Shown here: in pieces, positions 3,096 through 8,472 of the stretch | Layout of the letters: each line of letters opens with the position of its first letter | Position numbering within the stretch: position 1 is the stretch's first letter | NCBI RefSeq assembly: GCF_003991155.1 | Contig: NZ_CP031293.1 | From: Escherichia coli | GTDB taxonomy: Bacteria > Pseudomonadota > Gammaproteobacteria > Enterobacterales > Enterobacteriaceae | Reading direction: 5' to 3' (one strand) | DNA: 64,000 nt | Position numbers and translations under genes: made by a program | The notes under the pieces: model-generated | Databases searched by the model: none | What the model saw: only the letters and a program-made list of their open reading frames with translations | What the model was told of the DNA's origin: nothing

Positions 3096-3219
3096 AATAG
3101 TGCTTTTTACTAAGAGTTCTACTCCAGTTCCGGACTGCTCACGCCACAGTATTAGGCATATCCTATATAGCCCCTGGTGAGAGTCACCAGTTCCTTGATT
3201 AAATAAAATGGAGTTTTAC

Positions 3220-3681
3220 ATGAAGGCTTTCAATAAGCTGTTTTCCCTTGTGGTAGCATCTGTTCTGGTTTTCTCTCTTGCTGGCTGCGGTGACAAAGAA
3301 GAATCGAAGAAATTCAGCGCCAATCTGAACGGCACTGAAATTGCCATTACCTATGTCTACAAAGGTGACAAGGTGCTTAAGCAATCTTCTGAAACCAAAA
3401 TTCAATTTGCCTCCATTGGTGCAACCACCAAAGAAGATGCCGCCAGGACACTTGAGCCGTTAAGCGCCAAATACAAAAACATCGCGGGTGTTGAAGAAAA
3501 ATTAACCTATACCGATACCTACGCGCAGGAAAACGTGACTATTGATATGGAAAAAGTGGATTTTAAAGCCCTGCAGGGTATTTCAGGAATCAACGTTTCT
3601 GCTGAAGATGCCAAAAAAGGTATCACTATGGCGCAAATGGAACTGGTGATGAAAGCCGCTGGTTTTAAAGAAGTGAAATAA
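3220..3681 (+). CDS. yehR: lipoprotein YehR
   Basis: Signal peptide with lipobox LAGC; second in-frame ATG chosen to give 153 aa. Confidence 0.85.
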   Translation: MKAFNKLFSLVVASVLVFSLAGCGDKEESKKFSANLNGTEIAITYVYKGDKVLKQSSETKIQFASIGATTKEDAARTLEPLSAKYKNIAGVEEKLTYTDTYAQENVTIDMEKVDFKALQGISGINVSAEDAKKGITMAQMELVMKAAGFKEVK

Positions 3682-3687
3682 TCTGTC

Positions 3688-3712
3688 GGCGGCCATGTTT
3701 CGCATGGCCGCC
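3688..3712. terminator. hairpin between convergent yehR and yehS
   Basis: Perfect 10-bp inverted repeat GGCGGCCATG/CATGGCCGCC with 5-nt loop. Confidence 0.5.
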
Positions 3713-3721
3713 ATACCCGTC

Positions 3722-4192
3722 TTAGCTTTTCTTCACATGCTGGCGCGCTGCCAGTCCACGCAGAAAATAACGTAAAAATTGATCGCCGCATTCGCGGAAG
3801 TTTTTATGATCCGGTGCACGCATCATCGCCGTAATTTCCGGCATCGAAACGCGGAACTGCTGTTCGGTGAGGATTGCCAGAATGTCATCGGTTTTAAGCG
3901 AAAACGCGATGCGTAATTTTTTCAGCACGATGTTGTTATTAATGCGACGTTCCGGCTCCAGTGCCGGAGCAGACTCATCCTTGCCGCGTTTTTCATAAAT
4001 CAGGCAATTGAGGAATGAAGACAAAACAATGTCCGGACAACGCTGAAAACCCTCTTCGTCTTCTTTACGTAGCCAGACGGCGATCTGTTCCGCGGTGGCT
4101 TCGACATTACCCAGCGCCAGAATACGCACCAGGTCATTATTATTGGCTTTCAAAATGTAGCGCACGCTGCGCAGAATATCGTTACTTAGCAT
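3722..4192 (-). CDS. yehS: DUF1456 family protein YehS
   Basis: ORF trimmed to internal Met giving 156 aa as in K-12. Confidence 0.8.
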   Translation of the reverse strand: MLSNDILRSVRYILKANNNDLVRILALGNVEATAEQIAVWLRKEDEEGFQRCPDIVLSSFLNCLIYEKRGKDESAPALEPERRINNNIVLKKLRIAFSLKTDDILAILTEQQFRVSMPEITAMMRAPDHKNFRECGDQFLRYFLRGLAARQHVKKS

Positions 4193-4238: not shown

Positions 4239-4958
4239 TTACAGGCCAATCGCCTCTTTTAAGCTTTTCAGATAACGGCGGCTGACCGGCACGGTTAAGC
4301 CATTACGCAAAATCAACTCGGCCTGACCGTTATCTTCCAGACGAATCTCCTGTAAATGCGCGAGGTTAACCAGATACTGACGATGGCAGCGCAGTAGTGG
4401 TGTACGACTCTCCAGGGTACGTAATGTCAGTTCGGTAAAGCCCTCTTTCCCTTCGTGACTGGTAACGTAGACACCGCTCATCCGACTGCTGACAAATGCC
4501 ACATCTTTCATTTGCAGCAAATAAATCCGACTATGCCCCGTACAAGGGATAAATTTCAGCGCCTGTTGATTTTCCGGTAACAACGAAACATCCTGCTTGC
4601 TGCGCTCCAGACGCAATCGCGCCAGCGTTTTCTCCAGTCGCGCTTCATCAATTGGCTTCAGCAGATAATCAAAGGCATGTTCTTCAAAGGCTTTAATGGC
4701 GTATTCGTCAAACGCGGTGAGAAAAACAATATACGGGCGATGTTCCGGGTCGAGCATCCCCACCATTTCCAGACCACTGATGCGCGGCATCTGGATATCG
4801 AGAAACAGCACATCCGGGCGCAGTTTATGCACCGCGCCGATCCCTTCTACGGCGTTTGAACACTCTCCAACGATTTCAATATCGCTCTGCTCCTGCAAAA
4901 ATACGCGCAGGTTCTCCCGTGCTAACGGTTCATCATCGACAATTAAGACTTTAATCAT
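4239..4958 (-). CDS. btsR: LytTR-family response regulator BtsR (YehT)
   Basis: N-terminal receiver domain [17 protein letters not shown]; 239 aa; overlaps btsS stop. Confidence 0.9.
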
Positions 4959-6640
4959 GCCTCGTCCCTCCATGGTAGTCGTAACGTTATTCGGGTGTAA
5001 CTATCAGGCTCACAGGCGACGCTTATCCCATAGTCATCGCCAAACCGTTCACGTAAACGCTTATCCACCAGATTCATCCCCAGCCCACTGGCATTGGTTA
5101 CCGGTTGATACAAACCTGCATTGTCTTCGATCTCCAGCATCAAATGTTGCCCCTCACGTCGGGCGCTGATTGCCACTCGCCCTGTATCCAGCAGTTGTGA
5201 TGTCCCATGTTTAATGGCGTTTTCCACTATCGGTTGCAGGGTAAACGCGGGCAATTGCTGCTGGGATAATTCTTGCGGAATAGCAATGTTGACCTGCAAC
5301 CGCGACTGGAAGCGCGCCTTTTCAATTTGCAGATAAGCGTTCACATGTTCAATTTCGTCGGCGAGAGTAACAAACTCCGAAGGCCGCTTTAAGTTTTTGC
5401 GGAAAAAAGTGGAAAGATACTGCACCAGCTGGCTGGCCTGTTCGCTGTCGCGGCGGATCACCGCTTTAATGGTGTTAAGCGCATTAAACAAAAAATGGGG
5501 ATTCACCTGGGCGTGAAGCAGTTTGATCTCTGACTGGGTGAGCATCGCTTTTTGCCGCTCATATTGCCCGGCGAGGATCTGTGCCGAAAGCAGTTGCGCA
5601 ATCCCCTCACCCAGCGTGCGATTGATTGAACTGAATAAACGGTTTTTGGCTTCATACAATTTGATGGTACCCATCACTCGCTGATTTTCACCACGCAACG
5701 GAATGACCAGCGTCGACCCCAGTTTGCATTGCGGATGCAAAGAGCAACGGTAAGGCACTTCGTTGCCATCAGCGTAGACCACTTCACCGGTTTCAATCGC
5801 TTTTAAGGTATAAGTTGAAGAAATCGGTTTGCCGGGTAAATGGTGGTCGTCACCAATTCCGGTAAAGGCCAGCAATTTCTCTCGATCGGTAATCGCGACT
5901 GCACCAATATCCAGCTCCTGATACAGCACCTGTGCCACTTTCATGCTGTTCTCTTCGTTAAACCCCTGGCGCAAAATGCCTTCCGTCGAGGCCGCCACTT
6001 TCAGCGCAGTGGCAGAAAAAGCCGAAGTGTATTTTTCAAACATCGCGCGTTTATCGAGCAATATACGCATAAACAGTGCCGCGCCGACGGTATTGGTGAC
6101 CATCATTGGCGCAGCAATATTACTCACCAGACGCACCGCATCTTCATAAGGTCGGGCGATCGCCAGGATGATCAACATTTGCACCATTTCAGCGACGAAC
6201 GTAACGGCACCGGCGGTAATGGGGTTAAAGACTTTATCAGTGCGCCCGCGACGGATCAGGATGCTGTGTACCAGGCCGCCGAGCAATCCTTCAACGATGG
6301 TCGAGATCATGCAACTTAGCGCGGTCATGCCCCCCATCGAATATCGATGTAACCCGCCGGTCAGACCAACCAGCCCACCGACGACCGGACCGCCGAGTAA
6401 GCCGCCCATTACCGCGCCTATCGCACGGGTATTGGCAATAGAATCGTCAATGTGCAACCCAAACCAGGTGCCCATGATGCAGAAGATGGAAAAGACGATG
6501 TAGCAGAGAAATTTATGCGGCAGACGAACCGTGACCTGCATTAGCGGTATGAATAATGGCGTTTTACTCATTAACCACGCAATGACTAAAAAAACGCACA
6601 TCTGCTGAAGCAGCAGCAACACCAGATTAAAATCGTACAT
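4955..6640 (-). CDS. btsS: sensor histidine kinase BtsS (YehU), pyruvate-sensing two-component system
   Basis: 561-aa membrane sensor kinase upstream of and overlapping btsR. Confidence 0.9.
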
Positions 6641-6861
6641 ACCCGCAAACCACACTTCCCTTTAAAACGCGTAACATACATTGCCTGCGTTTAACTTTCT
6701 TTGAACTCTTGCAGAAAAATGAGAATTCGTGAGTACGATCACTCAAAATCGCCTGGCAAAAATAAAATCACCCTATAGATGCACAAAAAACGGGCAAAAC
6801 TACCTGGTTCGCAAAACTGCGTCTAAAGTTAAACCGGGACCTCGCGAGCAAGGGTGAGACG

Positions 6862-7593
6862 ATGGCGCTTTACACAATTGGTGAAGTGGCGTTGCTTTGT
6901 GATATTAACCCTGTCACGTTACGCGCGTGGCAGAGGCGTTACGGATTGCTGAAACCGCAACGGACAGACGGCGGTCATCGGCTGTTCAACGATGCCGATA
7001 TTGACCGGATCCGCGAGATCAAACGCTGGATCGACAACGGCGTGCAGGTCAGCAAAGTAAAAATGCTGCTCAGTAATGAAAATGTTGATGTGCAGAACGG
7101 CTGGCGCGATCAGCAAGAAACATTACTGACTTACCTGCAAAGCGGCAATCTGCATAGCCTGCGAACGTGGATCAAAGAGCGCGGTCAGGATTACCCCGCC
7201 CAGACACTCACCACACATCTGTTTATTCCTCTGCGCCGACGACTTCAGTGTCAACAACCGACTCTCCAGGCGCTGCTAGCGATCCTCGACGGCGTACTGA
7301 TCAACTACATCGCCATCTGTCTGGCTTCGGCACGTAAAAAACAGGGTAAAGATGCGCTGGTGGTTGGCTGGAATATTCACGATACCACCCGTCTGTGGCT
7401 GGAGGGCTGGATTGCCAGTCAACAAGGATGGCGCATTGATGTCCTCGCCCACTCGCTCAATCAACTACGCCCTGAACTGTTCGAAGGCCGTACATTGCTG
7501 GTGTGGTGCGGTGAAAATCGAACCTCCGCCCAACAGCAGCAACTCACCAGTTGGCAGGAACAAGGCCATGATATTTTCCCACTCGGCATTTAA
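6862..7593 (+). CDS. mlrA: MerR-family transcriptional regulator MlrA
   Basis: N-terminal MerR HTH (YTIGEVALLCDINPVTLRAWQRRYGLL); 243 aa. Confidence 0.9.
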   Translation: MALYTIGEVALLCDINPVTLRAWQRRYGLLKPQRTDGGHRLFNDADIDRIREIKRWIDNGVQVSKVKMLLSNENVDVQNGWRDQQETLLTYLQSGNLHSLRTWIKERGQDYPAQTLTTHLFIPLRRRLQCQQPTLQALLAILDGVLINYIAICLASARKKQGKDALVVGWNIHDTTRLWLEGWIASQQGWRIDVLAHSLNQLRPELFEGRTLLVWCGENRTSAQQQQLTSWQEQGHDIFPLGI

Positions 7594-7652
7594 TGATTCG
7601 TTAACAAATGCGCTTTACTGTACAATCCTTTCGTTAACATAAGGAGTGCATT

Positions 7653-7760
7653 ATGCGCATAGCTAAAATTGGGGTCATCGCCCTGTTCCTGTTTATGGCG
7701 TTAGGCGGAATTGGTGGCGTCATGCTCGCAGGTTATACCTTTATTTTGCGTGCTGGCTGA
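7653..7760 (+). CDS. yohO: small membrane protein YohO (35 aa)
   Basis: Not in ORF track (<60 aa). RBS AAGGAG then ATG; encodes [35 protein letters not shown]; overlaps 3' end of convergent yehW. Confidence 0.75.
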
Positions 7761-8472
7761 ACGCCTGCACCAGCCTTTCAAACAGGCGGTCTGCGATGAT
7801 CGCCGCCAGTGCCACCAGTAACGCCCCCTGGATCACATACGCGGTATTAAATCCGCTAAGCCCGATGATGATCGGCATACCCAGCGTGCTGGCCCCTACC
7901 GTTGAGGCGATCGTCGCCGTACCAATGTTGATAATCACCGAAGTTCGCACGCCCGCCAGAATCACCGGAGCCGCCAGCGGTAGCTCGACCTTACGCAGTC
8001 GCTGACCACGACTCATTCCCATACCTTTCGCAACTTCTGTCACGCTGGCATCAATCGCTCCCAGCCCGGCAAGTGTCGCCTGCAGGACGGGCAGCACGCC
8101 GTAAAGGATCAAGGCGATAATCGCGGGTTGCAGACCAAAGCCGATCACCGGAACGGCAATCGCCAGCACCGCGACGGGCGGAAAAGTCTGCCCAACGGCG
8201 GCAATAGTTTCCACCAGTGGGCGAAATTCCGCGCCCCACGGGCGAGTAACAATAATTCCTGCACCAGTGCCAATGATCACCGCAAACAAACTCGAAATTC
8301 CCACCAGCCAGAAATGAGCCAGTGCCAGAGCTGCAAAACTTTCTTGCTGATAAACGGGGCGTGGCAGTTGTGGGAACAAGGCAGCAAACAGCGGCTGGCT
8401 GTAAGGCAGCCAGAAAATCAGTGCCACAAACAAAGCAATGAGCCAGAACAGCGGATCGCGCAACATCTTCAT
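7741..8472 (-). CDS. yehW: osmoprotectant ABC transporter permease YehW
   Basis: 243-aa polytopic membrane ORF in yehZYXW operon. Confidence 0.9.

Follow-up and report, generated by a model that had tools for sequence, protein, structure and literature searches.

The small membrane protein gene yohO and its convergent overlap with yehW in Escherichia coli and related Enterobacteriaceae

Several small single-pass proteins of Escherichia coli modulate larger membrane proteins, including AcrZ with AcrB, KdpF with KdpABC, CydX with CydAB, MgtS with MgtA and MgrB with PhoQ. The closest described counterpart of the locus considered here is YohO of strain K-12 (b4542, YP_588460.1; family models NF010225 and PF27791). 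In K-12 MG1655 the gene is annotated as "UPF0387 family protein YohO" at 2215657-2215764 on the plus strand, where it overlaps by 20 bp the permease gene yehW at 2215745-2216476 on the minus strand. The detection and membrane association of YohO were reportedly first described in Hemm 2008; in the papers that our literature search covered, no experiment giving YohO a function or a partner was found. Ribo-seq coverage of yohO has been reported (bioRxiv 10.1101/2020.05.05.079178), the 35-aa protein has been detected by top-down mass spectrometry in a 2025 proteomics paper (PMC12529367), and in one screen the yohO clone of the ASKA set, induced with IPTG, came up as a candidate that grew (PMC10299036). 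At the RNA level, yohO-yehW belongs to the set of 165 convergent excludons that ExcludonFinder called in E. coli MG1655, a call requiring that RNA-seq coverage overlap in 50% or more of 58 samples (PMC12288877).

We analyzed a 64,000-nt stretch of E. coli DNA (the window), in which yohO was found at 7653-7760 on the plus strand as an open reading frame running from an ATG through 35 codons to a TGA. A Shine-Dalgarno sequence, AAGGAG, could be read at 7641-7646 on the same strand, 6 nt upstream of the ATG. On the minus strand, yehW occupies 7741-8472 and, as judged from its open reading frame and RefSeq product names, closes the osmF-yehYXW operon, which encodes a glycine betaine ABC transporter. 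The upstream neighbour mlrA (6862-7593, plus strand) is co-directional with yohO and provides context only, being inconstant in other genera. The initial annotation, which was made from the sequence alone, had described here a hydrophobic 35-aa frame named yohO, preceded by a strong ribosome-binding site, too short for a 60-aa ORF cutoff, and ending about 20 bp inside the coding end of yehW. All of these points hold, and the overlap is exactly 20 bp. The same annotation placed yohO in the gap between mlrA and yehW, which is only partly right: the gene begins in the gap, 59 nt past the mlrA stop at 7593, and its end lies within yehW. Farther upstream, the mechanical ORF for btsS (4955-6655, minus strand) started from a GTG and gave 566 aa, compared with 1686 nt (561 aa) in the RefSeq annotation of strain SMS-3-5, an ordinary start-codon ambiguity.

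A 35-aa open reading frame alone is not significant: in the ORF listing, 52 frames of at least 20 aa overlapped the 3.5-kb stretch around yohO. The significance of this one comes from its conservation, its codon-position bias, a family model and the published detection of the protein. A 501-nt query around yohO matched 5423 of 5426 complete E. coli genomes, with at least 80% of the query covered in 5420, at a median of one place per genome, and the window was 100% identical over the 501 nt to strains such as SMS-3-5. All records among the matches listed carried the RefSeq label "yohO: protein YohO" between mlrA and yehW. In SMS-3-5, in locus coordinates, RefSeq places yohO at 3204-3311 and yehW at 3292-4023, again overlapping by 20 bp. 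The peptide also matched the NCBIfam equivalog model "protein YohO" (NF010225) with a score of 80.1 bits, above the cut-off of 57 (E 8.8e-23), with residues 1-35 aligned to positions 1-35 of the 35-position profile. Thus, the name given in the initial annotation is correct, and the identity of yohO and its reality as a gene are practically certain. In precomputed annotation, YohO orthologues carry the Pfam label PF27791 (UPF0387_membrane). A search of the peptide against a local Pfam-A copy returned no significant match, only B12D below threshold; this is a discrepancy of library version or threshold, and it calls for caution with other very short proteins. Compared with K-12 YohO, the window gene has the same length, the same position between mlrA and yehW and the same 20-bp overlap, and at this level of gene layout no difference of substance was observed.

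Glycine zippers in transmembrane segments present faces of small residues that serve tight helix-helix packing. YohO appears to have such a face. The peptide is strongly hydrophobic, with a GRAVY of 1.58 and a mean Kyte-Doolittle value of 2.17 over residues 6-32, and AF2, run with an alignment of 34 sequences, predicted one continuous helix over residues 3-33 at a mean pLDDT of 91.2. The hydrophobic stretch is bordered by basic residues, R/K2 and K5 before it and R/H33 after it. YohO belongs to the UPF0387/YohO family of single-pass membrane peptides. Among 47 distinct orthologues, M1, G19, G22, V23, M24, L25, G27 and Y28 were invariant, and K5, M15, A16, I20, G21 and I31 nearly so. The resulting core, M15-A16-x-(G/S)-G-I-(G/S)-G-V-M-L-x-G-Y28, is present in the window peptide, and its small residues fall at GxxxG-like spacings (G18/S-G22-A26 and G19-V23-G27). 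A profile search of the PDB with YohO gave nothing meaningful (E 1.9). The small-residue face would pack against another transmembrane helix, either that of a second YohO or that of a larger membrane protein, and by analogy with described small proteins we consider it fairly probable that YohO acts in this way. In size, predicted single hydrophobic helix and conserved small-residue motif suited to packing, YohO resembles AcrZ, KdpF, CydX, MgtS and MgrB, and like them it was found to be a membrane protein in surveys of this kind (bioRxiv 10.1101/2020.05.05.079178). It differs from them in that yohO is convergent to the gene of its candidate partner and does not lie in its operon.

Conservation was assessed in loci anchored on YehW rather than on YohO. 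The best 80 yehW loci were taken from a collection of species-representative genomes, with YehW identities to the window of 73% to 96%; a further 352 relatives with YehW identity below 73% fall outside the count. More than 20 genera were covered, including Escherichia, Citrobacter, Salmonella, Enterobacter, Klebsiella, Kosakonia, Leclercia, Lelliottia, Cedecea, Buttiauxella, Trabulsiella, Yokenella and Pantoea. A yohO-like sequence was located at the 3′ end of yehW in 79 of the 80 loci, and 78 carried an intact frame starting with ATG, whose product had 37 aa (42 loci), 35 aa (33 loci) or 34 aa (three loci). A Shine-Dalgarno-like site (AGGAG or GGAG) stood at the same position in 77 of the 78 intact loci. 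The initial annotation had proposed to check the peptide across the Enterobacteriaceae, and loss of the reading frame in relatives is not what was seen.

Two loci deviated from this pattern. In Citrobacter amalonaticus AUH_CA_2023_1 (L007, ~3787-3822), a one-base shift right after the ribosome-binding site left the conserved yohO frame without its ATG; this copy is either a genuine pseudogene or the product of a homopolymer error in an assembly from long reads. Enterobacterales bacterium CwR94 (L073, 3726-5929) was the sole yehW locus among the 80 that lacked yohO; a convergent 714-aa pta-like frame follows yehW there after a gap of ~60 nt, indicating that a rearrangement removed yohO. It should also be noted that one contig titled "Chryseobacterium sp. 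18061" (L080; CACSKA010000001.1, 799 kb) carries mlrA-yohO-yehW of Enterobacteriaceae type, its YehW and MlrA sharing 73% and 76% identity, respectively, with those of the window; the assembly is probably mislabelled or contaminated.

The pattern of substitutions was specific to the yohO frame. Over codons 2-29, which do not overlap yehW, pairwise differences per site averaged 0.232, 0.085 and 0.497 at the first, second and third codon positions, so that variation at the third position was about six times that at the second. Nei-Gojobori dN/dS values of each relative against the window, read with synonymous sites near saturation, were 0.058 for Klebsiella oxytoca, 0.068 for Citrobacter koseri, 0.076 for Salmonella arizonae and 0.079 for Citrobacter werkmanii. 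An antisense frame of 29 aa was intact in only 16 of the 78 loci, and since it is mostly broken, it is the yohO frame on which selection acts. Together, the comparisons indicate that this frame is under strong purifying selection. An exhaustive HMMER search of 1.84 billion representatives returned only 17 clusters at E <= 1e-3, several of which were frameshifted or chimeric calls of yohO, and this points to a narrow family.

Analysis of gene neighbourhoods revealed that yohO is tied to yehW and not to mlrA. The latter was absent or distant at L035, L048, L056, L081, L074 and L083-L088. Six loci were retrieved by means of divergent YohO peptides, independently of yehW; in these, yohO still overlapped yehW, by 20 bp, and the upstream neighbours differed, being metG with an HTH regulator or a TonB-dependent receptor. 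Taking all 84 loci with an intact yohO, the gene was joined to the 3′ end of yehW in every one, whatever its upstream neighbour. The TonB-dependent receptor upstream of yohO sits beside an enterochelin esterase in some taxa. In three Klebsiella loci (L042, L052 and L068), mlrA and yohO are separated by roughly 320-570 nt.

In the window, the tail-to-tail overlap of the two coding sequences spans 7741-7760 and includes both stop codons. The overlap recurred in all 78 intact loci of the yehW-anchored set, of which 42 shared 26 bp, 33 shared 20 bp, two shared 17 bp and one shared 14 bp. Within it (7741-7760 in the window; ~3700-3732 in L002-L081), the YohO tail is conserved as FILRAG or FIVRGGVG, and the last residues of YehW are hypervariable (LSQHAK, LTRHVK, LSRHRREQ and others). 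Since the YehW tail varies and that of YohO is kept, a dispensable YehW C-terminus would absorb the cost of the shared bases, and the alignment indicates that the yohO frame dominates them. The conserved overlap could be an inherited geometry in a narrow clade.

Built-in and relaxed hairpin-plus-U-tract scans, extended to 8200 on the plus strand and to 7300 on the minus strand, found no intrinsic terminator 3′ of either stop codon; the only terminator-like match of the built-in scan lies inside yohO. No Rfam family was matched at E <= 1 in 7300-8100. Because no terminator is located near either 3′ end, the sequence predicts that the yohO and yehW transcripts must overlap, and by more than the 20 coding bases. 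Convergent, overlapping transcription had been anticipated in the initial annotation, and it agrees with these scans, with the overlap of the coding sequences and with the published excludon listing (PMC12288877). Like other pairs in that catalogue, yohO and yehW have no intergenic region and no terminator between them; they differ from convergent excludons in which only the UTRs overlap in that here the coding sequences do so. The excludon status of the pair is based on RNA-seq coverage only; a full excludon implies mutually exclusive expression, brought about by transcriptional interference or by RNase III processing. Convergent read-through would give mutual antisense interference, of the excludon type, between yohO and the osmF-yehYXW operon; that such interference is functionally meaningful seems rather doubtful.

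Upstream of the coding sequence, several short elements were conserved along with the gene. A predicted -10 hexamer, TACAAT, lies at 7621-7626 on the plus strand and reads TATAAT in most other genera; TA.A.T was invariant in an alignment of 24 yohO upstream regions, and a TAnAAT-like hexamer was present in 79 of 79 loci checked. A near-palindrome, TTAATGrTTCrTTAACA, at 7590-7606 is conserved across genera, and 66 of 79 loci fitted a loose version of its pattern. The -10, the near-palindrome, the GTTAACA and the AGGAG persist where the upstream neighbour is not mlrA (L035, L048 and L056), as well as in the loci with a TonB-dependent receptor (L086-L088). Since these elements are kept without mlrA upstream, we infer that yohO is served by a conserved promoter of its own. 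This promoter was missed by the built-in scan, because TTAACA is only 14 nt upstream of the -10 and no canonical -35 hexamer is present at a spacing of 16-18 nt. A Fur box, an FNR site and an MlrA half-site (TGTACAAT) were also considered for the upstream elements and rejected by eye, the spacing being wrong or the match specific to Escherichia.

ArcA boxes consist of direct repeats of TGTTAA-like elements 11 bp apart. A box of two direct-repeat elements, ttgttaacgaatcattaa, was identified on the minus strand at 7590-7607, where it covers the -35 region of the predicted yohO promoter. Park et al. (2013) reported an ArcA ChIP-chip/ChIP-seq peak at yohO (Table S1) and gave the box ttgttaacgaatcattaa in Tables S3/S4 (PMC3798270); their 18-nt box is the exact reverse complement of window positions 7590-7607. 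With a ChIP peak and an identical box, yohO resembles other ArcA regulon promoters that have a two-repeat box over the -35 region (PMC3798270). In the same study, yohO was listed among 31 ArcA-bound operons that were too lowly expressed during anaerobic glucose growth for a regulation call (Table S8). In the table of an RNA-seq study of Shigella flexneri (PMC4229854), yohO is given a single value of -2.96 (log2), apparently a decrease under anaerobiosis. Phosphorylated ArcA would repress yohO when oxygen is scarce, and we regard the chance that it does so as about even. A second conserved element, GTTAAC, was observed at 7633-7638 on the plus strand, where the yohO mRNA is predicted to begin and just before the ribosome-binding site, and reads gttaaca in most loci. 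It lies 33 bp (three helical turns) downstream of the ArcA box, is equally conserved across genera, and is absent from the repeat elements given by Park et al. (PMC3798270).

Several other explanations of the frame were considered. Short frames are abundant around yohO, as the 52 in the 3.5-kb stretch illustrate, and yehW read-through would transcribe the region in antisense; both could be expected if the frame had arisen by chance or marked a non-coding element such as a yehW 3′ UTR or terminator region or an sRNA. Such an origin has virtually no probability left, being refuted by the frame intact in 78 of 80 loci, by the frame-specific substitutions with their low dN/dS, and by the published Ribo-seq (bioRxiv 10.1101/2020.05.05.079178) and mass spectrometric detection (PMC12529367). 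The conserved ATG and Shine-Dalgarno sequence and the NCBIfam equivalog match likewise speak against it, as does the lack of an Rfam match and of a terminator-like hairpin downstream of either stop codon. It is also very improbable that yohO encodes a type I toxin-like peptide whose expression is kept low by an antisense RNA arising from convergent yehW transcription. A short hydrophobic peptide with a single helix and a glycine-rich face would suit a toxin of this type, and potential antisense from yehW read-through, with no terminator in the way, covers yohO fully. However, practically all E. coli genomes have the gene in a single copy and at the same place, and it is conserved across genera under purifying selection; neither an Rfam antitoxin sRNA (E <= 1, 7300-8100) nor a PADLOC defence system was matched; the induced ASKA clone grew (PMC10299036); and native YohO is detectable by mass spectrometry in growing cells (PMC12529367).

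The most attractive specific hypothesis is suggested by the strict linkage to yehW: YohO might be an accessory or regulatory subunit of OsmF-YehYXW that binds the permease YehW or YehY, by analogy with KdpF in KdpABC or AcrZ on AcrB. Such a role would be one specific instance of the helix packing proposed above. The yeh operon is sigma-S dependent. The linkage is near-absolute, with yohO sequence at the yehW 3′ end in 79 of 80 anchored loci; the loci found from divergent peptides keep the overlap next to other upstream neighbours, and mlrA is not a constant neighbour of yohO. Nevertheless, we consider a role of YohO as a subunit or regulator of this transporter improbable. The two genes are convergent and without co-transcription, whereas KdpF-like subunits share the operon and strand of their transporter, and the regulatory signals differ, with an ArcA box for yohO against sigma-S for the yeh operon. 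In addition, an excludon, if that reading is right, implies reciprocal expression, which would be odd for the components of one complex, and all loci come from one family-level clade, in which linkage may reflect plain synteny.

Thus, 7653-7760 is the already known yohO (b4542), a translated gene for a 35-residue single-pass inner-membrane protein of a narrow enterobacterial YohO/UPF0387 family, and we hold this explanation, the best overall, with high confidence. The gene, its translation and its convergent overlap were described correctly in the initial annotation but are not new, being present in databases and papers; the ribosome profiling that it proposed as a check has already been published (bioRxiv 10.1101/2020.05.05.079178).

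For the biology of this family, the conserved ArcA box predicts aerobic expression of yohO, and the invariant glycine face of YohO offers obvious point mutants. Because yohO is strictly coupled to the 3′ end of yehW rather than to mlrA, the betaine transporter operon is where a partner at the RNA or protein level should be sought first. The yohO-yehW pair also offers a small, tractable system in which to ask if the excludons now catalogued matter for regulation. It is conceivable, if quite unlikely, that the invariant overlap is functional, with an ArcA-switched yohO, responding to oxygen and quinone redox state, acting on the sigma-S- and osmotically controlled OsmF-YehYXW either as an antisense RNA or as a peptide docking on YehW or YehY. 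If this is true, the function of the overlap would link respiratory state to compatible-solute uptake.
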